This document shows positions 25,972-38,859 of a DNA stretch of 64,000 nucleotides, piece by piece; the first letter of the stretch is position 1; each line of letters begins with the position of its first letter. The stretch is from a phage. The notes beneath the pieces are model-generated. The model made no database searches. It had not been told where the DNA came from and saw only the letters and a program-made list of their open reading frames with translations. Position numbers and translations under genes: made by a program. The stretch is from NCBI GenBank assembly GCA_032691205.1, contig GCA_032691205.1_4541.1. One strand, 5' to 3'.

Positions 25972-26740
25972 AAACTATAACTGCTCATGTAAAATCTGCC
26001 TAAACGGGGGAACTCTCAACGAGACAATCCCGTGCTAAACGTAACAGAACTCCCAACACAGAAGAAGGGGGTACTGATATGAGAAAACAAATTCGTGATT
26101 TTGAAGGGTATGAAATTGACGAGCTTGGAAATGTTTATTGTACCAGGTATAAGGATGAAAGAATCCTTCGCTCGTGGGAAGAAATAAACACAGGATACCA
26201 ACTTGTCAGAATACGTAAAAACAAGAAAACTGTTTGCTTTCGGGTGCACAGACTTGTAGCTGAAGCGTTTTTACCCAATCCAGACAATTTACCTTATGTG
26301 AAGCATAAAGGTGACAATAGGAAAGACAACAGTGTATACAATCTTGAGTGGGGATCTTGTCCAGACAACACGCAAGAGGGTTACGATAATAACTGTTATG
26401 CTTTCTATACAAGGTGTCACAGTGTAAAAGCTACTCATAAGGCTACTGGTGAAGTTTTTTACTTTAAAAGTCTGAGATGTTGTGCTGACGCTTTAGGGTT
26501 GGACAGAAAAAGAATATCTGCAATCTTAAAGCGAGGAGCACCAAATAATTATGATTATGAGTTCTGTTACGAAATGCCTAACGACTAGCTGTGATGAATG
26601 TAGCAGCGTAGGGTGTAAGCCTATGACACCCCAAATGGTAGACATGCTTTAAGCATGAAGATATAGTCTGATCTGCATGGTGACATGCAGCAGCACGTAA
26701 TGGTGCGGGAGCGGCCTTGCGAGCCACTTTGAACATAATG
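25972..26740 (+). mobile_element. group I intron in nrdD carrying an HNH gene
   Basis: Exon 1 ends in U, intron ends in G (..CATAATG|TGT); joined exons read ..VTSMG|CRSFLSYY.. as one 604-aa NrdD. Confidence 0.65.
26079..26588 (+). CDS. HNH homing endonuclease (intron-encoded)
   Basis: 169 aa; VHRLVAEAFLPNPDNLPYVKHKGDNRKDNSVYNLEW; own RBS GAAGGGGG. Confidence 0.65.
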   Translation: MRKQIRDFEGYEIDELGNVYCTRYKDERILRSWEEINTGYQLVRIRKNKKTVCFRVHRLVAEAFLPNPDNLPYVKHKGDNRKDNSVYNLEWGSCPDNTQEGYDNNCYAFYTRCHSVKATHKATGEVFYFKSLRCCADALGLDRKRISAILKRGAPNNYDYEFCYEMPND

Positions 26741-27682
26741 TGTAGAAGTTTCTTGTCGTACTATGCCACCGAACAAGGAGAAAAATATGATGGACGATTC
26801 AACCTTGGAGTAGTTTCTATCAACTTGCCTCTGATTGCTGCGGAAGCGAGAAGTAAAGGAGAATCTTTCACCGATCTTCTTAATAAACATATGGAGATAG
26901 CCTACGATGCTCACATGTTACGTGTAAACCGTATCAGACATACCAAAGCATCGGAAAACCCTATTCTTTTCATGGAAGGGGCTTTAGCGCGTTTAAATGC
27001 CAACGATGAAATTGGTGCTTTGTTTGAAGGTGGTTATGCTTCTATTAGTATTGGTTATGTAGGTCTTGCCGAAGCTTTGGAAATCCTTTATCCAGAGGAA
27101 AAAGATAAAAAGGAACTAGGTAAAAACATTCTGCAACATATGAAAGATGTGTGTGCTGTGTTTAAAGAACGATCTAAGTTGGCATTTAGTCTTTATGGAA
27201 CTCCAGCAGAATCCTTGTGCTATAAATTTGCAACAGCTTTAAATGAAAAATATCCAGGTCTGGTAGAAAGAGACTATCTTACTAATTCTTTTCATCAACC
27301 TGTAGGGTTGGTAACAAATCCTTTTGAAAAATGGGATTATGAAGCAGGTTTTGCACAGATTAGCAATGGTGGTAACATAAGTTATGTCGAAACACCAAAC
27401 TTAAAGAATAACTTAGAAGCTTTGGAGACTTTAGTAGACTACGCTTATGAACATATTCACTATTTTGGTATTAATCAGCCCGTGGATCAATGCTTTAAGT
27501 GTGGTTTTCATGGAGAATTTAAGGCAACGGCTAAAGGGTTTGAGTGTCCTGATTGTGGCAACCATGAAGAAGAAACTATTTCTGTAGTTAGACGTGTATC
27601 AGGGTATCTTTCTGCCCCTAATTCACGGCCTTATAACAAAGGTAAAATGCAGGAAGTTTTGCAAAGGGAGAAACATCTTTGA
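26741..27682 (+). CDS. nrdD: anaerobic ribonucleoside-triphosphate reductase NrdD, exon 2
   Basis: C-terminal Zn ribbon CFKCGFHGEF...CPDCG and glycyl-radical motif RRVSGYLS. Confidence 0.75.
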   Translation, partial: CRSFLSYYATEQGEKYDGRFNLGVVSINLPLIAAEARSKGESFTDLLNKHMEIAYDAHMLRVNRIRHTKASENPILFMEGALARLNANDEIGALFEGGYASISIGYVGLAEALEILYPEEKDKKELGKNILQHMKDVCAVFKERSKLAFSLYGTPAESLCYKFATALNEKYPGLVERDYLTNSFHQPVGLVTNPFEKWDYEAGFAQISNGGNISYVETPNLKNNLEALETLVDYAYEHIHYFGINQPVDQCFKCGFHGEFKATAKGFECPDCGNHEEETISVVRRVSGYLSAPNSRPYNKGKMQEVLQREKHL

Positions 27683-28369: not shown

Positions 28370-28975
28370 ATGCAACATAGTGTAGTAGTCAATATGCCGA
28401 ATAGTGGGGATAAATCTTTTGGTGTCCCTGCTAAAAAAGTGTGGAAAGCCCATTTTCATCTTACTTTATCTAACGTTAGTTCTGAAGAGTTGATGAAAGC
28501 AGCTAAGATTATTGGTGCCAAATGCACAACAATTGATTTACATCGGGATACAAAGTCTCAACGTGATCGTATGTTAACAAAGTATCAAAGCGATCTCGAC
28601 ACTACTTTAATGTTGCAGTGTGTAGAAAAACTTGAGAATGCAGGTTTCAATGTTGTTCGTTACAAACTGGAACGAATGTTTAAACATGTTGCCTGTGTTC
28701 TTTTCATGGATCTAAGTAAAGAAAATTATGGAGAAGTTCACATTAAGACTTCAGCAAGTGATCCCGAAGTAGAAACAAACTTCTTCCGTATTTCTTCTAA
28801 TGCTGAAGAAATTGATTACCGATTTTATAATGCTCGCTTATATTCCGCAGAAGATAAGTTGCGTTTCAATGAAGCGTATGATATGCTCTTGAACAGTGGG
28901 ATACAGATAAAAGGCTACCACATAGAACAAGTTGTGGTAGACAGTAACTTAAATCTTGATGCGTGGTGGGCCTAG
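28370..28975 (+). CDS. hypothetical protein
   Basis: ORF 201 aa, RBS GAGGAGATAAG; first gene of the Ter-like block. Confidence 0.65.
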   Translation: MQHSVVVNMPNSGDKSFGVPAKKVWKAHFHLTLSNVSSEELMKAAKIIGAKCTTIDLHRDTKSQRDRMLTKYQSDLDTTLMLQCVEKLENAGFNVVRYKLERMFKHVACVLFMDLSKENYGEVHIKTSASDPEVETNFFRISSNAEEIDYRFYNARLYSAEDKLRFNEAYDMLLNSGIQIKGYHIEQVVVDSNLNLDAWWA

Positions 28976-28976
28976 T

Positions 28977-29633
28977 ATGACAATAAAACATATTTCTTTT
29001 GATGTATGGAATACTCTTATTTCTGCCAATCAAAACTATGCAGATGCACGTACGCACACTATTGCTACATATGGTAGAATGTCTGAACGTGCGGCAAAAG
29101 AAGCATATAAAGATGCCAAAGAAATTATGGATAATGCTGCACTAAATGGGTGTGCAGAAGGTGTAGCATATGCATGGAATATGTTGGGAAGAAAGATAGG
29201 TTTAACCCCTGTAGAATCTGCACAAATGCGTTTTGAGTGTGAGCAATGGTTTCTTAAATTTCCTCCACATATCGCTTTAGATTTGCCAGTTTGTTTGCTA
29301 TACTTGTCTGGTAAATATGATCTTAGTATTAAAAGCAATACTAATTTTATATCTGGGGATATTTTGCGTCGTGCTTGTATGTTCGACAGTTGGAATTGTT
29401 TTGAATTTATGCATTTTTCAGACGAACATCTGTTATGTAAACCAGATCCTAGATTCTTTGTTAGGACCGCCACATATTCAAGCATTCCTTTGAAGGCTGA
29501 AGAGATTTTACATGTTGGGGACAGCGAAGAATTTGATGGTAAATGTGTTGACATAGGGATTAACTTCTGTCATATTAAGAACCCTAACGATTTACTAGAG
29601 AAACTTAAAAGAGGAGAAATTGTAAATGCGTAA
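28977..29633 (+). CDS. HAD-superfamily-like hydrolase (divergent)
   Basis: ISFDVWNTL (motif I with the second Asp replaced) and LHVGDSEEFDGK (motif IV-like). Confidence 0.4.
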   Translation: MTIKHISFDVWNTLISANQNYADARTHTIATYGRMSERAAKEAYKDAKEIMDNAALNGCAEGVAYAWNMLGRKIGLTPVESAQMRFECEQWFLKFPPHIALDLPVCLLYLSGKYDLSIKSNTNFISGDILRRACMFDSWNCFEFMHFSDEHLLCKPDPRFFVRTATYSSIPLKAEEILHVGDSEEFDGKCVDIGINFCHIKNPNDLLEKLKRGEIVNA

Positions 29634-30453
29634 TCAAACTCAAATTTTTGCAAATAAATTTGATGACCTGGAAACTGCTACTTTTGATATCAAAGACTAT
29701 TCAAAATTGAAATTTGGTTGTAACCAAGCTGCGCGTCGTATGGGTAAAGAATTGGCACTTCAGTTTTTTGCTCAAGTGGCAATGAAACATATTGGGGAAC
29801 AATTTGTTATCATCCCTTCTCCTTATAACCATGTGCACAATGCTGCAACAATGATGACAGATCATTTTATTAATTACTTTAATATGTTGCAAGCACAATA
29901 TGATCAAGGTCGTTCAGCAGAACTGGATATTATTCATCGTAAAGTTAGCTATATCAACGATTATGGTTTCTTGGATAAAGCTAGTCGTAAGAAACTTATT
30001 GATGGGGATACATTCTACTGCAACAAAGAATTCTGGGGTGATAAGAAGCTTGTGTTCATTGATGATGTAAATATCACCGGAACTCATGAAGACAAACTGA
30101 TTGAGATTCTTGATGAAAATCAAGTTAAAAATGATGTTTACTTCTTGTATTTTGCAAAATATGAAGGTAATCAAGCAGATACTGAAGCTAAACTGAATTT
30201 TAACTACATCAATACACCAGAAGCGTTTGTTAAAATGATTAATGAAGAACGTGATGCACAGTGTCTTGTTCGTCCTATTAAGTATCTTATGGGCCAAAAT
30301 CACGAAGACTTCAAAATCATTCTTAGCCAATTGCCACACTACTATGTAGAGCAACTTTTCTTCGGATGTTTGGGAGAAGGTTACAACCGAATTTCAAAGT
30401 ATGCTGAAAACTTTGAATTCTTGGATCGTTACACAAAACAACACATTCTGTAA
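29626..30453 (+). CDS. phosphoribosyltransferase-like protein
   Basis: PRPP-binding signature KKLVFIDDVNITGTHEDKL. Confidence 0.55.
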   Translation: MRNQTQIFANKFDDLETATFDIKDYSKLKFGCNQAARRMGKELALQFFAQVAMKHIGEQFVIIPSPYNHVHNAATMMTDHFINYFNMLQAQYDQGRSAELDIIHRKVSYINDYGFLDKASRKKLIDGDTFYCNKEFWGDKKLVFIDDVNITGTHEDKLIEILDENQVKNDVYFLYFAKYEGNQADTEAKLNFNYINTPEAFVKMINEERDAQCLVRPIKYLMGQNHEDFKIILSQLPHYYVEQLFFGCLGEGYNRISKYAENFEFLDRYTKQHIL

Positions 30454-30466
30454 TAAGGAGCTAAAA

Positions 30467-30940
30467 ATGCTTAAAATGAAAACAGGTAATCTTATTGATG
30501 CCGCTAAAGCAGGTGAAGTAACTGTTATTGCTCATTGTTGCAATTGTATGTGTAATATGGGAGCAGGAATTGCTCCGCAAATTAAACGAGCATTCCCTTA
30601 TGCATATGCGGCAGATTTAGACACAATGGCTGGTGATCAAAGTAAGTTAGGTTCTTTTAGTTTAGGGGTGCCAGACGAACAATCAGACCCTTTGGTATAT
30701 AATCTATACGGGCAATACCGTTACGGATACAATGCTAAAGGTCGTCAGTTGGACTATGATGCACTTTACGATGCACTAATAGCTATGGCTAATGATTTGC
30801 TTCTCCGTGACCAAAAATGTAAGATAGGTTTACCTATGATTGGAGCGGGACATGCCGGAGGTAATTGGGCTATCATCCAAGTGATGATTGAAGAAACTTT
30901 AGTAAAAACAGGTCACGATGTGACTATTTATAAACTTTAA
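30467..30940 (+). CDS. macro-domain protein (ADP-ribose binding/hydrolase)
   Basis: Start MLKMKTGN with RBS TAAGGAG; EVTVIAHCCNCMCNMGAGIAPQIKRAFP and IGLPMIGAGHAGG. Confidence 0.65.
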   Translation: MLKMKTGNLIDAAKAGEVTVIAHCCNCMCNMGAGIAPQIKRAFPYAYAADLDTMAGDQSKLGSFSLGVPDEQSDPLVYNLYGQYRYGYNAKGRQLDYDALYDALIAMANDLLLRDQKCKIGLPMIGAGHAGGNWAIIQVMIEETLVKTGHDVTIYKL

Positions 30941-30952
30941 GAGGAGATTAGT

Positions 30953-31174
30953 ATGGGTGTTTTTGCAGGTATTGTTGCAGTGGTAAGCTTTTTTGTTATT
31001 GCTTTTATGCTTAGTTTGATTCCAGCTTGGTTACTGTTGCTGGCTTACAACTATGTTGCTGAAGTTATGGGTCATGCAGATATCACTGTCCCAGTAACCT
31101 TCTGGACCGTGGTTTGTGTTTCGTTTATTTTGGCGGTATTACGAGGAATCTTTTCCTCTCATTCAACAAAATAA
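30953..31174 (+). CDS. hypothetical small membrane protein
   Basis: 73 aa, two predicted TM helices. Confidence 0.55.
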   Translation: MGVFAGIVAVVSFFVIAFMLSLIPAWLLLLAYNYVAEVMGHADITVPVTFWTVVCVSFILAVLRGIFSSHSTK

Positions 31175-31177
31175 GTG

Positions 31178-31236
31178 TTGACATAGTTCTTAAAAAGAGT
31201 AAGATATATCACATGAAGCGGGGAATAGTTCCCCGC
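31178..31236 (+). promoter_or_regulatory. early-type promoter + 5'-UTR hairpin unit (only plus-strand copy), upstream of terC
   Basis: TTGACA-16nt-TAAGAT then hairpin GCGGGGAA-TAG-TTCCCCGC (31218-31236), RBS AGAGGAGAA. Confidence 0.6.
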
Positions 31237-31253
31237 AAAGAGAGGAGAAAAGA

Positions 31254-32228
31254 ATGCAACTCGGTTTCCCAATTATTGATGTAGTTGTTTTAGTTGGTAT
31301 TTTAGCATTGTCTATTGGTATCGATTTCTTTGGTCATAAAGAGAATAAAGAAATTGGAATTAAATCTGCTTTGCTTTGGTCTGTTTTTTGGATTGCTTTA
31401 GCTTTAGGGTATTACGCATTCATTTGGGTAGAACATGGTAAAGAGTTTGCCGCGCTTTTCCTAAGTGGCTATGTGTTGGAAAAGAGTCTTTCTGTAGATA
31501 ACCTAATGGTGTTCATGGCAATTTTTGCAAGCTTTGGAATTAAGAGCACACATCTCCAACATAAGATTCTACTTTGGGGGATTGCAGGAGCCATTGTCTT
31601 CCGAGGTATTTTTGTTGCAGCAGGGACCGCTTTGTTTAACCTTCATTGGTCGGTCCAAGTGTTGTTCGGTTTGATTGTAGCTTGGTCTGCCGTGGCTATC
31701 ATCAAAGGTGGTGACGAAGAAGAGGATATTGATTACTCTAAACATTGGGCTGTTCGTTTAGTAGGTAAAGTTCTGCCTGTGCACAATGCACTGGATGGTG
31801 AAAAGTTCATCACCATTAAGAATGGTATTAAATATGCAACTCCTGCTCTTCTTTGTGTGTTTGTTATTGAGCTTACAGATATTGTCTTCTCTTTTGATTC
31901 AGTTCCGGCTGTGATCGGTGTGACACAAGAACCTCTGCTAGTTTATTCTGCAATGCTGATGGCTGTTCTTGGTTTACGTGCACTTTTCTTTGTGTTAAGT
32001 GTAGCTGTGAAATATCTGGTTCACTTAGAGAAAGCTGTTGCTGTGGTTCTGGTGTTTGTTGGTGCTAAACTTATGTATCACCCGTTCGGTGAAACACTTC
32101 ATGCCAAGTGGTCATTCCTCCCGCATGATATTTCCCCTAACGTAAGTCTGATGATTGTTCTAGGCACATTATCTCTTGGTGTTATTGCAAGCTTTATCTT
32201 CCCTGAAAAAGAAGAAGCTACTGTTTAA
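31254..32228 (+). CDS. terC: TerC-family integral membrane protein
   Basis: 324 aa multi-pass; conserved LEKSLSVDNLMVF and ELTDIVFSFDSVPAVIGV. Confidence 0.65.
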   Translation: MQLGFPIIDVVVLVGILALSIGIDFFGHKENKEIGIKSALLWSVFWIALALGYYAFIWVEHGKEFAALFLSGYVLEKSLSVDNLMVFMAIFASFGIKSTHLQHKILLWGIAGAIVFRGIFVAAGTALFNLHWSVQVLFGLIVAWSAVAIIKGGDEEEDIDYSKHWAVRLVGKVLPVHNALDGEKFITIKNGIKYATPALLCVFVIELTDIVFSFDSVPAVIGVTQEPLLVYSAMLMAVLGLRALFFVLSVAVKYLVHLEKAVAVVLVFVGAKLMYHPFGETLHAKWSFLPHDISPNVSLMIVLGTLSLGVIASFIFPEKEEATV

Positions 32229-32234
32229 TAAATG

Positions 32235-32258
32235 AGCCTCCTTCGGGAGGCTATTTTA
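32235..32258 (+). terminator. rho-independent terminator
   Basis: AGCCTCC-TTCG-GGAGGCT then ATTTTAT. Confidence 0.6.
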
Positions 32259-32270
32259 TAGGAGAGACTT

Positions 32271-32621
32271 ATGAGTAATTTTGATGAAATTCAAGAACTT
32301 GTTTGGGATTTATCTGGTGATGTGGATTACGTTTTAGATTATCTTTCAAAAGTTTACCCTGGGGTAAGCGTTATGATCGTGACCAAAGATCCAATTAATT
32401 TGCCTCCTAATGTGGTAGCTTGTTGTGGGAGTGGTTCAGGGGAAGTGGAGCCTGTATCCCGTTGGGAATTAACTAAAGCTGTTTCAAAACGAAACGGTGA
32501 AGTTTTGAATATTGATATCGAGCAAATATGGACTTCTCCAGCAGCTAAATGGAATGATCCGAATGGTTGGGACTTGTTCTTCTGGGATAATGAAACTGAT
32601 GATGAGGTATTTTTAAAATGA
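32271..32621 (+). CDS. hypothetical protein
   Basis: ORF 116 aa. Confidence 0.55.
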   Translation: MSNFDEIQELVWDLSGDVDYVLDYLSKVYPGVSVMIVTKDPINLPPNVVACCGSGSGEVEPVSRWELTKAVSKRNGEVLNIDIEQIWTSPAAKWNDPNGWDLFFWDNETDDEVFLK

Positions 32622-32804
32622 AATACTTGTTGGTTGTGTTTGAAAATATTTGTTTTGCAATAGGGTTGTTTGTTGTAATTTTTGTATTGACAAGCGTAAT
32701 CAACGGCAGTAAAGTGAGTTTATACCGAGATGGAGAGCAACTTTATTGCTTCTCTGGAGATTTCAAACACAGATGTATTAATAGCCAAAACGAGGAAAGC
32801 AAAT

Positions 32805-33242
32805 ATGAAAAAACTAGCCCTGATTTTAATTGGTTGTATCTTTTTAACAGCTTGCGAGGATGAAACAAATCCTGCACAATACCAACAACCTCCTCAACAA
32901 TACGCTCAACAAGGATCTGACGGAGATACAACTATTATCAACAATGGTGGCGGTTCTAGTAGTAGCGGTGTTGGTGAGTTTGCTACAGGTATGTTGTTAG
33001 GGCATATGATGAGTGGCGGTAGTAATCGTAGCAGTGGGGATTATAACGATAACAGAACGATTATTAATAAGCATTATAATACACCTAAACCGAAAACTAA
33101 TTTTTATAGTAAGCCTAAACAAGAGATAAAAACTTATGAAAAGCCGAGACAAACTTTTAAAACAAATAGTAGCTATACAACTCGTAAATCTTACAATAGC
33201 CCTTTAAGTAAAAAGAGTTCATCTCGTAGCAAGCGACGTTAA
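32805..33242 (+). CDS. lipoprotein with Gly-rich segment
   Basis: MKKLALILIGCIFLTAC lipobox; GGGSSSSGVGEFATGMLLGHMMSGG; RBS GAGGAAAG. Confidence 0.55.
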   Translation: MKKLALILIGCIFLTACEDETNPAQYQQPPQQYAQQGSDGDTTIINNGGGSSSSGVGEFATGMLLGHMMSGGSNRSSGDYNDNRTIINKHYNTPKPKTNFYSKPKQEIKTYEKPRQTFKTNSSYTTRKSYNSPLSKKSSSRSKRR

Positions 33243-33256
33243 TAAGGAGAAAAACA

Positions 33257-33850
33257 ATGACAATTTCTATTCGTACTTCCATCGTAGGTGTTAAAAGGTT
33301 GCCTAATGCTTTGCAAATCACACGCGCTTTGAGGGATACATTCTCTGCTGTGGACGAGCATAAGATGCTTGATAATCTTTCAAATTGGCCCTATTTCCAT
33401 TATTTTAAAAATGAAGATGACGAGTTTATAGACGCTGTTTCTTATGGTTATGATTTCGGTAAGGAGGTTTCTGCTGAAGAATTTGTAGCTATGGTGTTCC
33501 CAAACGGTTTGCCTACTCGCAGTAAACGTAAAAAAGGACCAAAAAACAAGAAACGTGCTACTAATAAAGCTACCATTTTCTTTACTGATGGCACACAATA
33601 TACGATTAAAGATTTTGAAGAGGTATCTTATACAGCAGGTGGGAATCTTTCTTTCTACACCATCAAAAAACAAAACTCTACGTTCAGCCATGTTTCTAAC
33701 ATGATTGAAATGTTAGTAGAAGATATTGAAAGCGTAGCTGTGTTAGGTATGCATAAAAGCTTTTTAATTACAAATATTTCAGATTTCAGTGCACGTTTAT
33801 CTGGTCCTGATTTTGAAACCACGACCACGCATTTCACTTTTAAGGTGTAA
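33257..33850 (+). CDS. hypothetical protein
   Basis: ORF 197 aa, RBS AAGGAGAA. Confidence 0.6.
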   Translation: MTISIRTSIVGVKRLPNALQITRALRDTFSAVDEHKMLDNLSNWPYFHYFKNEDDEFIDAVSYGYDFGKEVSAEEFVAMVFPNGLPTRSKRKKGPKNKKRATNKATIFFTDGTQYTIKDFEEVSYTAGGNLSFYTIKKQNSTFSHVSNMIEMLVEDIESVAVLGMHKSFLITNISDFSARLSGPDFETTTTHFTFKV

Positions 33851-33853
33851 GTT

Positions 33854-34444
33854 ATGTATACCGAGAGAGACTTGCAACTCTTGTGGTGGGAAGTGATGCA
33901 GGAAATAAAAGAAGATTTTCCTGTTTACTACAACATGTTACGTGAAGCAGGATATAAAGCTTGTGTTAGAAACAAAGTGAATAACTCTTTCGGTTGGTGC
34001 AACTACCGAGATAAAATTGTTGTTGTAAATTGGCACTTGCATAAGAACTCTACAAGAGATATGATCGTGGATACAATGAAGCACGAAATTGCTCATGCTA
34101 TTGATGGTTGTATGGGTAAGTTTAGTAGACACGGTGCTCATTGGCAAAAACTGGCAGCAGAGTTAGGGGCTAATCCTAAAGCCACTTCCAAAGAGCCGTT
34201 GAACCACGAATATAAATATGTTCTTGTTCTGGTAGATAGGTTTGCGACAAGATGTGTTAGAGGTTATAATCGTAAACCTAATCGCATGTACCCAGGTAAG
34301 CAACCTAATATGTGGTTGAAATCAGATAAAGAAGGGACCGAAGGAAAATTATGGTTGTATAAATGGGACGATTGGGTTAAAGTAGCTAAAGAGTACGGTG
34401 TTTCACCATATATAAGAGATGCAGAAGAGGAGAATGAAGAATGA
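33854..34444 (+). CDS. SprT-like zinc metallopeptidase
   Basis: HExxH motif MKHEIAHAIDGCMGKFSRHGAHWQ. Confidence 0.5.
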   Translation: MYTERDLQLLWWEVMQEIKEDFPVYYNMLREAGYKACVRNKVNNSFGWCNYRDKIVVVNWHLHKNSTRDMIVDTMKHEIAHAIDGCMGKFSRHGAHWQKLAAELGANPKATSKEPLNHEYKYVLVLVDRFATRCVRGYNRKPNRMYPGKQPNMWLKSDKEGTEGKLWLYKWDDWVKVAKEYGVSPYIRDAEEENEE

Positions 34445-35553
34445 CAAGTCCATTTTTAAAAGCAGCTACTGGCGGTCAGAAGAAGCCTGAAATGAGCGTA
34501 TTTGCTGCAACAACAGATGCAAGTAAATCTGTATTCGCTCCAAGCGTGTTAGATGCCAGTCCTGTTTATGCACCAGCGGCACCGCAAGAAGTTCCAGTTT
34601 TGCCTTCTATGACCCGACAAGAGATCGAAGAGATTGGGGCAGAGGCAGGAACAACCTTGCGTTCCTTGAATGCCGAGGTATTAAAACATCAACGTAGTAA
34701 TCAAGGCGATCAGATGAGTGAACGACTCACAGCTTTGATTAAACAGGCAAAACAACTTGATCCAAACTCTATTAAACAAAGCAAGGGTATTACTAAACTC
34801 ATTAAAAAAGTTATGGGTATGAAAGAAGATCTGTTTGGGGAGTTTGATAATGTTAATAACCGTATTGAAGAGTTGGTAAAAAACCTTCAAATGGATATTC
34901 GCAAAGAAGAAGATTCCTTGGTATATCTTGAAAAGCTACATCAAGCTATTGGACAATATGCTGCAAGTTTGAACCGAGATATGCAGCTTCTAACAGCAAC
35001 CTATGAAAAAGAAGAACAAGCTTTGGCTGCTCTTCCAGAAGATGCAGTAGAACAGCGACAAGTGATCCGAGATACTTTGGATCTTCTGGAGATTCGTATT
35101 GCAGATTTAAAAGCATTGCGCCTACTGTGTGTCCAAATGGGACCGCGTGTACAAGGTATGCAAAAAGTTTCTGCAAGCTTAATGCGATCTGCGCGTAACA
35201 TAGTAAATAATGTTATTCCTGCTTACTCTGCTAACTTCTCAATGTATATCGAGAGCTTACGTCAAATGAAAGCAGCAGAGACGCAGAATAACGTTCTTGA
35301 TGAATTTAACCTGGCAATTAAACTGGGTAGCGATCTTGCCACACAGAATCAGATCGAAGCAGCAGCCCTGGCTAACCGCCAAGTGCTCGATATTGAAACT
35401 CTGCGTCACGATCAGGAAAACTTGGTTAAAATGTTGGAAGAAACTAACCGCATCAATACGGAAGCCCGTGCTGCTCGTGTTGATTATATTAATGAAGTTC
35501 AATCTCTGGAAGACGGGATGGTAGCTGCTGTGAAACGAGGGCTTGGTAAATGA
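34441..35553 (+). CDS. TelA-like (toxic anion resistance family) protein
   Basis: 370 aa, almost entirely helical/coiled-coil; size and composition fit the TelA/KlaA family. Confidence 0.4.
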   Translation: MTSPFLKAATGGQKKPEMSVFAATTDASKSVFAPSVLDASPVYAPAAPQEVPVLPSMTRQEIEEIGAEAGTTLRSLNAEVLKHQRSNQGDQMSERLTALIKQAKQLDPNSIKQSKGITKLIKKVMGMKEDLFGEFDNVNNRIEELVKNLQMDIRKEEDSLVYLEKLHQAIGQYAASLNRDMQLLTATYEKEEQALAALPEDAVEQRQVIRDTLDLLEIRIADLKALRLLCVQMGPRVQGMQKVSASLMRSARNIVNNVIPAYSANFSMYIESLRQMKAAETQNNVLDEFNLAIKLGSDLATQNQIEAAALANRQVLDIETLRHDQENLVKMLEETNRINTEARAARVDYINEVQSLEDGMVAAVKRGLGK

Positions 35554-35747
35554 GAATCCGTATCTATATAATTGATGAAGACATTGGTGTCCGTTATGAT
35601 GACGAAAAACGATTCGCGCCGATGGGAGGCATATATCCCCCAAGTGTTCTAGCAGTTTGTCGTGATTGTTATATTTATGAAGGTTGTCGTAACTTCCGTA
35701 AATTCGAACTCCTTGCAGATATTGACTTCAATGAGGAGGAGGAGTAA
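35550..35747 (+). CDS. hypothetical protein
   Basis: ORF 65 aa, acidic C-terminus. Confidence 0.45.
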   Translation: MRIRIYIIDEDIGVRYDDEKRFAPMGGIYPPSVLAVCRDCYIYEGCRNFRKFELLADIDFNEEEE

Positions 35748-35920
35748 TGAAAATATTACGAGTGAATATTGAAACTGCTTGGTGTGGATGCAATGAGGTT
35801 GTGGATATCGAAATTGAAGATGATATGTCTCAAGAGGATATAGAAGATCTTGCGCACGAAACCTTTCAGGACTATTGTAATTACGGGTTTCATATTTTAG
35901 AGGAGGAAGAAGATGTTTAA
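35747..35920 (+). CDS. hypothetical protein (57 aa)
   Basis: ATG at 35747 with RBS GAGGAGGAGGAG. Confidence 0.4.
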   Translation: MKILRVNIETAWCGCNEVVDIEIEDDMSQEDIEDLAHETFQDYCNYGFHILEEEEDV

Positions 35921-36116
35921 CTACGATAACGACCCTAATATTATCCAGTTAACCCGACAAGAACTGATCACAATCATTGAAGATGCTTTTATTGATGGTT
36001 GGAATACACAAGATAATGACTGGGGTGGACCCGAAGCTTTTCTGGAACATCATAAAGCTTATGGAGAATTTTGTGAAACCACTGTAGCTCTTGATAATCT
36101 GAAGGAGGGTTTGTAA
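35913..36116 (+). CDS. hypothetical protein
   Basis: ORF 67 aa, RBS GAGGAGGAAGAAG. Confidence 0.5.
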   Translation: MFNYDNDPNIIQLTRQELITIIEDAFIDGWNTQDNDWGGPEAFLEHHKAYGEFCETTVALDNLKEGL

Positions 36117-36679
36117 TGGGTTGTTTTAGTTTTTTGTGCAAAGAATCGGGCAAAGCTGCCCTTTCTACTTCTTTCGACGGATCACCTTGCTACCTCTTTC
36201 TTTTGAAAGACGGTGTTGTTATTGAAGAGATGTATGGCAACTATGATAGTTATGGTTGTGTTTTCTCTGGAAAAGAGGATGAAAATGGCGTTCGTGAACG
36301 GTTCGAATGGGCTATGGATTGGAGTAAGGTTTGTGATTTGATGCATTCCTCAAATCCAAGGGACGGTATCGCTATGGTGCTGGAAGAGTACTTTACAGGT
36401 GAAATCCCTACAGAACAATCTGACGGAGATCCTAACCAAGGTTGGGGTGATGGTGAAGAAGATCCAGATTGTTTTTTCAGCACAGAAAAGAATAAGTTTA
36501 AACGTGTTGACAACCCTTATCACAAAGTGCATAATACTCTCATTGAAACAGAAGATGACAAGATGGAAATTGAAGAAGATGATCCTCTTGTAACACTTCC
36601 TATAAGTGAGTTACAAAAGATCACTAAGGAAGCTTACGATTTGGGCTTCAAAATTGGTAGAGGAGGTATGCGTGTTTAG
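36116..36679 (+). CDS. hypothetical acidic protein
   Basis: ORF 187 aa, RBS GAAGGAGG. Confidence 0.6.
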   Translation: MGCFSFLCKESGKAALSTSFDGSPCYLFLLKDGVVIEEMYGNYDSYGCVFSGKEDENGVRERFEWAMDWSKVCDLMHSSNPRDGIAMVLEEYFTGEIPTEQSDGDPNQGWGDGEEDPDCFFSTEKNKFKRVDNPYHKVHNTLIETEDDKMEIEEDDPLVTLPISELQKITKEAYDLGFKIGRGGMRV

Positions 36680-36950
36680 ATTCAATATTCAAGAAGAAAA
36701 AAGTCAGGATTTACCTATTGCTTTCGAAGATCTTGACGTAGGGGCCACATTCATGTATTATGATGCCTATGAAGACGCAGGGTTGGATACCTACCGCAAC
36801 TTGGTGTTCATTAAAAATTCCACAAACAGTGCGATCTGTATTAATGGATCACTAGCACAACGAGGCTATACTCATTGCATCCCACCAGATACAAATATGG
36901 TGGAAGTAGATTTAGAAGTTACCAATATTACACTTAAGAAGGAGAAATAA
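36673..36950 (+). CDS. hypothetical protein (cassette copy A, small partner)
   Basis: GTG start with RBS GGAGG; ...FEDLDVGATFMYYDAYEDAGLD...LEVTNITLKKEK is paralogous to 37972..38241. Confidence 0.55.
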
Positions 36951-36951
36951 T

Positions 36952-37746
36952 ATGTCCGAGAAAATCAGCCTGAAAAAACGTCAAGAAAACCTTGCTTTCT
37001 CTCTGAAAAAGAATAAGAACCTGAATGAAGGTAAGATTGTTCTTCGTGTAGCATGTGCTCTAGATATTTCTGGTAGTATGCATGGTCTATATTCTAGTGG
37101 AGTAGTGAGTGATTTTGTAGGTAAACTGCTTCCTTTTGGTATGCTGTTCGACGATAATCAACAAATTGATATGTGGGCCTTCAATACGAGTTCCCAAGAG
37201 CTTACTCCAGCAACAGCAGACGTTTACGATGACTATGTTGGTAAATGTATGCGTAATGTTCGTATTGGAGGTGGAACAAATTACGCCCCTGTAATGGCAG
37301 ATATCTACGATGAGTATTTTGGCACTGTTACCAAATATATTACCACTAAACAAGTGGTACAAGAGGAGGCTCCAAAGAAAGGCTTCTTTAATCGTCTGCT
37401 TGGTAAAACTGAAACAGTATCTGTAGAGCGTGAAAAGGTTGTAGCTGTGTCTGAACCAGGTGCTGACGTTACCCCTGGTGTTGTATTCTTCCAGACGGAT
37501 GGTGAGAATGGTGATCCTAGTGCTGTTCGTCGTCTTATTGAAGAGAATAAGAATAAACCTATTTATTGGTTCATGGTTGGCGTTGGTAATGAGAAGTTTG
37601 GCTTCCTGAAAGAACTGGCAAATGCTTATGATAATGTTGGTTTTATTGGCATTAAAGATTTAGACTTGACAGATTCAGAGCTTTATGACAAACTCTTATC
37701 TGAAGAGTTCGGAGAGTGGGTTGTTAAAGTAGGTGCTAAAAAATGA
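36952..37746 (+). CDS. vWA-domain protein (TerY-like)
   Basis: N-terminus MSEKISLKK; MIDAS motif ALDISGSM. Confidence 0.6.
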   Translation: MSEKISLKKRQENLAFSLKKNKNLNEGKIVLRVACALDISGSMHGLYSSGVVSDFVGKLLPFGMLFDDNQQIDMWAFNTSSQELTPATADVYDDYVGKCMRNVRIGGGTNYAPVMADIYDEYFGTVTKYITTKQVVQEEAPKKGFFNRLLGKTETVSVEREKVVAVSEPGADVTPGVVFFQTDGENGDPSAVRRLIEENKNKPIYWFMVGVGNEKFGFLKELANAYDNVGFIGIKDLDLTDSELYDKLLSEEFGEWVVKVGAKK

Positions 37747-37991
37747 TCGACGAGCTTGCCTCTCAAGTCATAGAAAATTATTGGCGTGAGAGAGAAGCTT
37801 TCATTATGCGCAGTCTCAAAGAGTATTTCATTGGGACTGTGCGAATGGAAGATATTGTAAGTAGAGTAGAGATTCATGTATGGCCTGATTATGAAGAATG
37901 GGTTGACAAAGAAAATGAAAATGCTATAATTCTTCGTATATACAAACCGGAGATAACATTAGGAGGAAGAAGTGTTAAACTTCGAAATTGA
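37743..37991 (+). CDS. hypothetical protein
   Basis: ORF 82 aa. Confidence 0.5.
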   Translation: MIDELASQVIENYWREREAFIMRSLKEYFIGTVRMEDIVSRVEIHVWPDYEEWVDKENENAIILRIYKPEITLGGRSVKLRN

Positions 37992-38241
37992 TGAGCAAAA
38001 AGTAAATAAACGATGCCTTACCATTAAAGATTTGGATGTAGGAGATACTTTCGTCTATGAAAATGCATTTGACGAAAATGGTTTAGACCTTAGTGAAATC
38101 ATTGTTTATTTAAAAGTAGATGATGGGGAAAATGATTATTCTGCTGTAGAACTAAACCATCATGCACAATTAGTATCAATCCAAAACACATCTAAGCTTT
38201 TGGAAGTAGAATTGACTGTAACTGGTATTACACTTAAATAA
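37972..38241 (+). CDS. hypothetical protein (cassette copy B, small partner)
   Basis: GTG start with RBS AGGAGGAAGAA; ...IKDLDVGDTFVYENAFDENGLD...LTVTGITLK is paralogous to 36673..36950. Confidence 0.55.
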   Translation: MLNFEIDEQKVNKRCLTIKDLDVGDTFVYENAFDENGLDLSEIIVYLKVDDGENDYSAVELNHHAQLVSIQNTSKLLEVELTVTGITLK

Positions 38242-38256
38242 TAGAGGAGACAAAAG

Positions 38257-38859
38257 ATGACTGATAAAATTTCCCTGAAAAAAGGCTCTAGCGAAAAAAT
38301 TTCCCTGAAGAAAGTTGCTCCGGCTCTGAAAGAACTGCGCCTGGAATTCTCTTGGAAATCTGATTCTAAACTGGATCTGGATGTAAGTGCACTGGTTTGT
38401 CGTCATAATGCCGCTGGCAATCCTGAAATGCTGTCCGCACGTCATCTGGTTTGCTATGCTAACAAGTTTGATCCTGAACGTTCTACCTTCGCTGGTGACG
38501 ATGTTCGTGATGGGACTGGCAGCATGGAGCAGATTGATATTACTCTGGCTAAAATCTCTCCTGATGCACAAGAGATTGCCTTTGTTCTGACCATTGATGA
38601 TGATACAGGTCTGAAACGTTTTGGTCATGCTTCTGAAGGTATGCTTAAAATCTTCGACTCCGAGCGTAATGTGGAAATTCTGGATTTTGACTTCCTGGCT
38701 CCTGAAGTAGCTGGCAACACAATCTGCCACGTGGCTTCCCTGGTTCGTGAAGATGGAGAATGGAAGCTGAAAGCATATGGTGTAGGTAAAGCTGGTCTGG
38801 ATATTTGCGATGTGGTGATGGCCTTCGGTGGTAAAAAAGAATGGTATGAATGTCCATAA
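38257..38859 (+). CDS. terD: TerD-family protein
   Basis: MTDKISLKKGSSEKISLKK N-terminus, DLDVSALV, GDDVRDGTG, IAFVLTIDDD, REDGEWKLKAYGVG fit TerD along its length. Confidence 0.75.
   Translation: MTDKISLKKGSSEKISLKKVAPALKELRLEFSWKSDSKLDLDVSALVCRHNAAGNPEMLSARHLVCYANKFDPERSTFAGDDVRDGTGSMEQIDITLAKISPDAQEIAFVLTIDDDTGLKRFGHASEGMLKIFDSERNVEILDFDFLAPEVAGNTICHVASLVREDGEWKLKAYGVGKAGLDICDVVMAFGGKKEWYECP

Follow-up and report, generated by a model that had tools for sequence, protein, structure and literature searches.

The DNA analysed here is a 64,000-nucleotide stretch of a phage genome (contig GCA_032691205.1_4541.1), referred to below as the window, and the subject of the analysis is a 10.5-kb block within it, at positions 28370-38859, whose genes resemble parts of the bacterial Ter (tellurite-resistance-associated) system. 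A preliminary description of the block, made from the letters alone, had named a HAD-like protein, a phosphoribosyltransferase (PRTase), a macro domain, TerC, an SprT-like peptidase, TelA, a vWA protein and TerD; profile searches recovered every one of these domains in place and on the + strand, using Pfam and, for the HAD-like protein, which scores below the Pfam cut-off, NCBIfam models in support. The central observation is that the phage, a Phapecoctavirus, has kept intact and selected genes for a four-protein Ter core (TerC, TelA, a vWA protein and TerD) and for a translationally coupled pair consisting of a HAD-fold protein and a PRTase of the PRTase_3 family.

TerC (31254..32228, +) is an inner-membrane protein of the Alx subfamily, matching Pfam PF03741 with an E-value of 3e-40 and the NCBIfam Alx-subfamily model TIGR03718 with 318.6 bits, where the cut-off is 246. 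Compared with E. coli Alx along its length it shows 34% identity, and it retains the acidic signature motifs EKSLSVDN and ELTDIVFSFDSVPA. TelA (34441..35553, +), a long helical protein of the toxic anion resistance family, matches PF05816 (E 3.2e-33) over positions 13-327 of the 332 in the profile, and TerD (38257..38859, +) matches PF02342 (E 3.2e-28) as well as the PDB entry for TerD, 2kxt (E 1.5e-15); the matches are significant for TerC, TerD and TelA, three of the families that the preliminary description had proposed checking by profile search. The vWA-TerF-like protein (36952..37746, +; PF10138, E 1.6e-37) was said to carry a metal ion-dependent adhesion site (MIDAS), and this motif (DISGS...T...D) is intact, its DxSxS, T and D being conserved in an alignment of seven phage homologues. 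The profile E-values of the named domains exclude chance. When homologues were counted by record in a collection of 50,697 phage genomes, TelA was found in 225 records, the vWA-TerF-like protein in 220 and PRTase_3 in 157. Of the features by which membership of a Ter system is recognized, TerD, TerC, a vWA protein with MIDAS, TelA and linked PRTase and HAD genes are present in the block.

The enzyme pair lies upstream of the core. The HAD-fold protein (28977..29633, +) matches Pfam PF00702 only below the cut-off (E 1.4e-3), and its assignment is backed by NCBIfam HAD-IA subfamilies (E 1.5e-8), by Pfam HAD matches on its homologues and by recognizable motifs I-IV. Its gene overlaps by 8 nt the start of the gene for PRTase_3 (29626..30453, +; PF15610, E 8.9e-42), a phosphoribosyltransferase of a Ter-associated, ComF-like family in which the loop that binds phosphoribosyl pyrophosphate (PRPP), VFIDDVNITGTH, is present; the two genes overlap or abut in all genomes examined. 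A separate homologue search with PRTase_3 found 240 homologues, and PF15610, a family defined on Ter operons, matches all of those listed. Motif I of the HAD-fold protein reads FDVWNTL, in which the nucleophilic Asp is kept and Trp stands at Asp+2, and motifs II-IV are present. In HAD phosphatases motif I is DxDx(T/V), with the residue at Asp+2 acting as the general acid/base; the PRTase_3 partner does not have this canonical form, which suggests that it is a HAD-fold protein other than a canonical phosphomonoesterase. The preliminary description had presented the two genes as a Ter-linked PRTase and HAD-like phosphatase: the linkage is borne out by three uncultivated phage-like contigs (L009, L010 and L011, described below), and the phosphatase role is made doubtful by the Trp at Asp+2.

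The window is that of a Phapecoctavirus, and the block along its whole extent shares 99.6% identity with Escherichia phage ESCO13. Dozens of other Phapecoctavirus genomes are 96-99% identical to it and genomes of Justusliebigvirus (phi92-like) 60-80% identical; it is matched by 132 phage records, with at least 80% coverage in 63, and is conserved across the Stephanstirmvirinae. The phage is virulent, has E. coli as its host, belongs to the phAPEC8 group and has a genome of about 150 kb. All of the Ter-type genes lie on the + strand, the same strand as nrdD and nrdG, which are directly upstream of the block, and downstream are an endolysin-like gene, four glycosyltransferases, a primase/helicase and DNA polymerase I, so that the setting near a replication block is as described at the outset. 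More than 100 deposited genomes contain the locus in partly annotated form, and relatives carry such public labels as "tellurite resistance", "TelA-like protein", "integral membrane protein TerC", "TerD family protein", "VWA domain-containing protein", "macro domain-containing protein", "putative orotate phosphoribosyltransferase" and "hydrolase".

Selection was evaluated by comparing 12 genes of the window with those of Shigella phage SF1-1, which is 97.9% identical. The comparison yielded 110.5 synonymous and 25.5 nonsynonymous differences, for an overall pN/pS of 0.062; there are no nonsynonymous changes in TerD, the vWA protein or the HAD-fold protein, and pN/pS is 0.04-0.06 for TerC, TelA, PRTase_3 and the macro domain. 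The block is under strong purifying selection. No DNA-level match to the TerC gene was found in 5,426 complete E. coli genomes, and because of this absence and the low pN/pS the genes are long-standing, selected phage genes rather than recent host debris. A recent capture of TerC from the host was rejected for the same lack of any DNA match, together with the protein's identity of only 34% to Alx.

The comparison of gene orders across genomes indicates that the block consists of three layers: a recurrent Ter core, a tightly coupled HAD-PRTase_3 pair and lineage-specific passengers. The core recurs as a compact operon in unrelated phages. In Caulobacter phage CcrBL9 the genes TelA-vWA-TerC-TerD are contiguous in that order, and the Pseudomonas Otagovirus phiPsa347 has the same order with one small open reading frame (ORF) between TelA and vWA; in Acinetobacter phage ME3 the locus combines TerD, TerC and vWA genes with those for PRTases and a HAD. 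The phages that bear the core differ in their type of TerC: the block has the Alx type, CcrBL9, ME3 and L011 have DUF475, and the Otagovirus protein is a form of 223 aa. Among the uncultivated phage-like contigs, L009 and L010 have the order TerC..TerD..vWA..HAD-PRTase_3, and L011 has TelA-vWA-HAD-PRTase_3-TerC-TerD followed by a PRPP-synthetase-like gene. Proteins of 311-391 aa and 389-402 aa in L009, L010 and ME3, considered as candidates for a divergent TelA, gave hhalign probabilities of only 37-64% against TelA and have no Pfam match. By record counts, the genomes with both the PRTase_3 and the TelA/vWA sets are those of the Stephanstirmvirinae, Brevundimonas phages and some Caulobacter phages. 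On plasmids, PRTase_3 homologues were matched only in Rhizobium, Sinorhizobium and Hymenobacter, and none was found on the classical IncHI2 ter plasmids.

Within the subfamily, phi92 has in the same order the genes for HAD, PRTase_3, the macro domain, a 73-aa membrane protein, TerC, a lipoprotein, TelA, a 187-aa protein, vWA and TerD. The earlier suggestion that clustering reflects a functional unit is therefore partly upheld, by the conservation between Phapecoctavirus and Justusliebigvirus and by purifying selection, and partly not, since the first ORF of the block and the SprT-like gene are absent from phi92 and the pair and the core are separable; judged from these arrangements, the block is not one indivisible unit. 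An annotated macro domain beside the ME3 Ter locus was not counted because Pfam gave no confirmation of it. The ME3 gene annotated "phosphoribosyl transferase" (L025 9142-10209, -) matches PF11202 ("tellurite-like stress resistance cysteine protease StiP") and PELOTA_1, and ME3 thus uses a Ter-linked enzyme set other than that of the block. In the T4-like contigs and in XaC1 the HAD-PRTase_3 pair adjoins an RNA ligase and a protein of about 470-530 aa (L012 7152-8555; L013 10967-12562; L002 15941-17527); this neighbour matches Pfam DUF2828/DUF7788 in L012 and L013, and the XaC1 protein, XaC1_252, which is of similar size, belongs, we infer, to the same family.

The interval had been described as starting with the HAD gene, and this proved not to be the case: its first ORF, here called ORF-A (28370..28975, +; 201 aa), is matched by neither Pfam nor NCBIfam and is a member of an uncharacterized family, the HAD gene being the next one along. 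ORF-A falls in a PHROG to which no function has been assigned and matches the PADLOC "AbiEi" models with an E-value of 5e-13. A search found 79 relatives, some of them fused to NUDIX or HD_4 domains; the family, which has no Pfam entry, is about 180 aa long, has invariant HxHxT, RxKxE, ExH and SxN motifs, and is common to phages and giant eukaryotic viruses. An AlphaFold2 (AF2) model (pLDDT 90.8) has a tandem ferredoxin-like fold with no close fold in the PDB. The HxHxT and the alternating polar motifs had raised the suspicion of a 2H phosphoesterase (LigT/2H) or a CYTH tunnel enzyme, and both were rejected because the confident AF2 model lacks such a fold. Relatives elsewhere often adjoin Acb1, NADAR and SIR2, and also phosphoesterases. 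A role for ORF-A as a Ter-linked part was likewise rejected, on the grounds that it is missing from phi92, that in ME3 a distance of 80 kb separates its homologue from the Ter locus and that others stand beside Acb1, NADAR or SIR2. It is a candidate for a new nucleotide-processing enzyme of an uncharacterized family, and it is probably an independent accessory enzyme of this kind rather than a component of the Ter system.

The macro gene (30467..30940, +) begins 13 nt past the PRTase stop. Its product, of the TARG1/DarG/SCO6735 class, matches Pfam Macro just above the cut-off (E 9.6e-5), the PDB macrodomain 5e3b (E 1.3e-12), NCBIfam DarG (E 6.5e-9) and PADLOC DarG (E 2.6e-10), and its similarity to the TARG1, DarG and SCO6735 macrodomains extends along the whole domain. 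A DarG antitoxin has, besides its macro domain, a C-terminal DarT-binding domain and an adjacent darT; the DarG match here covers the macro part only (model positions 2-147 of 338, with 35 bits against a cut-off of 250), and no DarT-like neighbour was found by Pfam and PADLOC scans. As read from the alignment, the GLAGG-type loop resembles that of SCO6735 and BT1257 and not the Lys/Asp dyad of TARG1. Macro homologues are present in phi92 and phiPsa347, in the latter beside a nicotinamide PRTase, and they lie 3-8 kb from TelA or the HAD-PRTase_3 pair in phiPsa347, XaC1 and L013; macro domains are common in large phages.

The SprT-like zinc metallopeptidase (33854..34444, +; Pfam E 4.2e-9) has the HEIAH motif, and the stop of its gene overlaps the TelA start. 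The gene is missing from phi92, and L011 has one 6 kb upstream of TelA. A conserved pairing of TelA with an SprT-like gene was considered and rejected, because the "metallopeptidase" beside TelA in G17 and RaK2 is an Rv2179c-like exoribonuclease and phi92 has no SprT.

The block also contains about 12 other small ORFs that match no known domain. A hydrophobic transmembrane protein of 73 aa (30953..31174, +), recognized from its sequence and of no known family, is conserved in phi92. Between TerC and the SprT-like gene are four lineage-specific ORFs with no family match, namely one of 116 aa (32271..32621, +), one of 81 aa with a single transmembrane segment (32618..32863, +), a predicted lipoprotein (32805..33242, +) read from its MKKLALILIGCIFLTAC lipobox (LTAC) and Ser/Gly/Asn-rich tail, and one of 197 aa (33257..33850, +); these four (32271-33850) are partially conserved in phi92, where gp180 is annotated with a signal peptide. 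Lipoproteins and small hydrophobic proteins are gene types typical of superinfection-exclusion functions, and the block includes one lipoprotein (32805-33242) and two small hydrophobic proteins (30953-31174 and 32618-32863). Beyond TelA are small ORFs at 35550..35747 and 35913..36116 (+) and a 187-aa protein at 36116..36679 (+), all of no family, the last conserved in phi92 with an E-value of 6e-97. A small protein just upstream of the vWA gene (36672..36950, +) and an 89-aa protein just upstream of TerD (37972..38241, +) are paralogues, with phmmer cross-matches of 1e-10, and an 82-aa ORF was read in the interval 37743..38241 (+). Each of the two paralogues of about 90 aa is preceded by a strong sigma-70-like site, at 36507-36535 (11 of 12 matches) and 37903-37930 (12 of 12).

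Dedicated promoters and terminators had been offered as an argument for a functional unit, and this argument does not survive comparison with shuffled sequence: the block has 49 promoter-like sites against 42.6 +/- 8 in the shuffles and 12 terminator-like sites against 10 +/- 2.8, so that neither is enriched, though a few single sites are strong. These include a sigma-70-like promoter motif, TTGACA-16-TAAGAT, before TerC (31178..31205, +), a GC-rich hairpin and T-run resembling an intrinsic terminator directly after TerC (32235..32252, +), and the perfect consensus TTGACA-16-TATAAT that makes up the second of the paralogue sites (37903..37930, +). Between the promoter-like site and the ribosome-binding site, in the 5' untranslated region of TerC, is a short GC-rich hairpin, GCGGGGAATAGTTCCCCGC (31219..31237, +), of no known RNA family. 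A manganese riboswitch was sought ahead of the alx-like gene and none was found: Rfam gave no match at the gathering threshold in the window, and nothing relevant to a yybP-ykoY or PRE-type leader appears at E<=1 in 30900-31320.

Two observations concern the surroundings rather than the block's function. The nrdD gene (with 26717-27682) has within it an ORF of 169 aa resembling an HNH-type homing endonuclease (window 26079-26588, +); because nrdD is a single uninterrupted 1815-nt gene in ESCO13 and is annotated as spliced in phi92, the window's nrdD seems to bear a mobile insert, possibly an intron, and no group I intron was matched in the window by Rfam at the gathering threshold. Four phage records, MG065650, MG065645, OP562383 and OR584014, are labelled as Campylobacter, Acinetobacter or Pseudomonas phages and are 90-97% identical to E. 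coli phages across the block; from this similarity their host labels look doubtful.

Whether such a gene set had already been described in phages was a question left by the preliminary description, and the answer is that it had (PMC7824862, PMC9796965 and the phiKp34 paper): phage Ter clusters are already known, and the class is not new in kind. Iyer, Anantharaman, Krishnan, Burroughs and Aravind (2021; PMC7824862) reported Ter systems in jumbo phages and related smaller phages, of which that of ME3 is relatively complete and includes PRTases and HAD enzymes and those of Caulobacter jumbo phages are abbreviated operons of TerD/TerC/TerF/TelA, and proposed that they act against superinfecting phages or in xenobiotic resistance. 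The superinfection control suggested in the preliminary description is, on comparison, essentially this published proposal. The block resembles these systems in having TerD, TerC, a vWA-TerF-like protein, TelA and PRTase/HAD genes in a virulent phage, but its genome of about 150 kb is not that of a jumbo phage, its PRTase is PRTase_3 where ME3 has StiP/PRTase_1-PELOTA and PRTase_2, its TerC is Alx where ME3 and CcrBL9 have DUF475, and in place of a compact operon its genes occupy 10.5 kb, with about 12 small ORFs inserted among them. PMC11162368, citing Schwarzer et al. 2012, reports an "alx-like ter cluster" in phi92; this cluster of the Justusliebigvirus type is like the block in subfamily, gene order and neighbours (nrdDG upstream, endolysin and glycosyltransferases downstream), with 65-78% amino-acid identity, but phi92 lacks ORF-A and the SprT-like gene and has instead an AAA/metalloprotease-like gene and an extra 200-aa gene. 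In PhiPsa374, terC, terD, terF and telA are listed and their function is called unknown (PMC9796965); the phiKp34 paper gives terC, terF-vWA and telA together with two terD genes; and in gut jumbo phages terD operons are highly transcribed, one of them beside a pspA-like gene (PMC12880540; 2026).

In comparison with the bacterial terZABCDEF operon and its terW/terY region (IncHI2 R478, E. coli O157 islands), the block shares TerC, the TerD fold and a vWA protein of the TerF C-terminal type, but it has one TerD paralogue where the bacterial operon has TerZ, TerA, TerD, TerE and TerF, no TerB was found among its 20 ORFs using Pfam, and it includes TelA, which in bacteria belongs to the separate telAB/kilA determinant. 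The bacterial ter operon is itself associated with PRTase and HAD genes. The phage TerC shares with E. coli Alx its NCBIfam subfamily and acidic motifs, but it has no riboswitch or pH-responsive leader and is borne by a phage among Ter partners.

The interpretation that we favour, with a confidence just short of calling it probable, is that the block encodes an abbreviated Ter system which remodels the inner membrane and the cation state of the infected cell, with the participation of a metabolite made by PRTase_3/HAD, and that it most likely serves to exclude competitors or to protect the infected cell. Expression of the genes would precede lysis and accompany that of the replication block; the PRTase would couple PRPP to some base and, with its HAD-fold partner, yield a small ribosylated metabolite; and TerD, the vWA protein and TelA would assemble beneath the inner membrane around TerC. 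This assembly may alter the divalent-cation flux and the membrane state, leaving the infected cell refractory until lysis to secondary insults such as DNA entry by superinfecting phages, pore-forming colicins and damage from envelope stress. The macro domain, the SprT-like peptidase, ORF-A, the lipoprotein and the small membrane proteins would be accessory, and they vary between lineages. The protective effect would mirror the phage inhibition and colicin resistance of plasmid ter operons, phenotypes which PMC9796965 links to ter genes with reference to Whelan 1995.

A number of points weigh against this interpretation. The timing of expression is read from gene position only. Relative to terZABCDEF the set is incomplete, with a single TerD, and no Pfam match to TerB, further TerD paralogues, an ATP-grasp enzyme or a TIM-barrel lyase was obtained among the block's 20 ORFs. 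The calcium-binding motif of TerD is degenerate both in the window and in phi92, with GDDVRDGTGSME in place of GDNRTGEGDGDDE; the canonical motif GDN(R/L)TG(E/A)GDGDDE is absent here, most of its acidic residues having been lost, and is kept in L009 and L010. Non-binding TerD paralogues are known from bacterial systems, and for this reason the degenerate motif does not exclude membership of a Ter system. In an alignment of HAD partners from the window (28977-29633) and from L002, L003, L004 and L009-L015, the form D-x-W-x-T, with Trp in place of the general acid/base at Asp+2, was found in 11 of 11 PRTase_3 partners from phages and plasmids; by this alignment the Trp is a hallmark of the partner family, and it makes doubtful a step in which a nucleotide produced by the PRTase is converted by a HAD phosphatase to a nucleoside. 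The enzyme pair and the core also appear, by gene order, to be separable in many genomes: the pair stands without a local Ter core in XaC1 and XaC1-like phages, Rhizobium phages, two T4-like metagenomic contigs and Rhizobium plasmids, and in Otagovirus and CcrBL9 the core has no such pair in its vicinity. Mn2+ export is the annotated function of TerC relatives such as Alx, and a plain role in metal homeostasis would need no exclusion function. Finally, no experiments on any phage Ter gene were found in the literature, and the papers call the function unknown.

The solitary occurrences of the pair lend themselves to another explanation, possible but on the unlikely side, in which the region is a mosaic that accumulates accessory genes and in which ORF-A, the HAD-fold protein, PRTase_3 and the macro domain form a nucleotide or ADP-ribose metabolite module independent of the adjoining TerC/TelA/vWA/TerD set. 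The 5' operon would then serve counter-defence or salvage, for example by removing ADP-ribose marks or by degrading or rebuilding nucleotide-derived signals, and the macro domain's closeness to DarG/TARG1-type ADP-ribosyl hydrolases, the nicotinamide PRTase beside its phiPsa347 homologue, the fusions of ORF-A relatives to NUDIX and HD and their neighbours Acb1, NADAR and SIR2, and the promoter-like site and terminator of TerC's own would all fit such a division. Independence of the two parts is harder to reconcile with the tight arrays of L009, L010 and L011, in which the pair directly adjoins TerC, TerD, vWA and TelA or lies in between them, with the other Ter-type PRTases and the HAD that stand beside TerD, TerC and vWA in ME3, with the definition of the PRTase_3 family itself on Ter operons, and with an order and content kept between two phage genera.

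A role in metal homeostasis, which we regard as distinctly doubtful, would have the Alx-type TerC export Mn2+ or another divalent cation, or metalate envelope proteins, with TerD, the vWA protein and TelA as cytosolic regulators, and the genes would serve to maintain the function of phage metalloenzymes and of the host cell rather than to exclude competitors. This would suit a TerC that belongs at full length to the Alx subfamily and conserves its acidic motifs, given the annotation of E. coli alx as an Mn(2+) exporter, as well as the position of the block directly after the ribonucleotide reductase genes and the calcium P-type ATPase carried by gut jumbo phages with terD; a contribution of Klebsiella terC to zinc resistance is also reported (PMC12054061). 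The host already has alx, however, no yybP-ykoY-type leader was found with Rfam, the TerD metal motif is degenerate here, and phages that share the core have TerC proteins of different subfamilies, because of which a structural or membrane role fits at least as well as one specific metal. That the genes are non-functional passengers, captured from a host and carried without a role, is scarcely credible: although TerD has a degenerate motif and the set falls short of the complement of bacterial ter operons, the idea is effectively refuted by a pN/pS of 0.06 with reading frames intact, by the retention of the block in more than 100 genomes of two genera, by the lack of DNA similarity of the TerC gene to any of the 5,426 E. 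coli genomes searched, and by the recurrence of the same core in unrelated phage families.

A bolder extension of the favoured membrane-remodelling interpretation, which we consider improbable, is that the block is a self-contained signal-effector circuit in which a phage-specific, small ribosylated molecule made by PRTase_3 and its HAD-fold partner, the latter probably no phosphatase, is edited or removed by the TARG1-like macro domain and gates a TerC/TerD/vWA/TelA membrane complex that shuts out competitors, and that, separately, ORF-A represents a new family of viral enzymes that process nucleotide signals. If this were true, the 30-year-old question of Ter function would have its first tractable system, in a 150-kb coliphage able to plaque on K-12.

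The value of the present analysis lies in a refined anatomy of the block, with its genes sorted into core, coupled and passenger sets. The new details are the Trp at Asp+2 of the HAD partner, the degenerate calcium motif of TerD and the lack of promoter and terminator enrichment, and two of them, the non-canonical HAD partner and the degenerate calcium site, change the chemistry to be expected. The biochemical mechanism of Ter and TelA proteins, which are widespread in pathogens and are linked to phage, colicin and tellurite resistance, has been unclear for decades, and a compact version of the system under strong selection in a virulent coliphage group with members isolated on E. coli K-12 MG1655 would offer a clean genetic system in which to study it.

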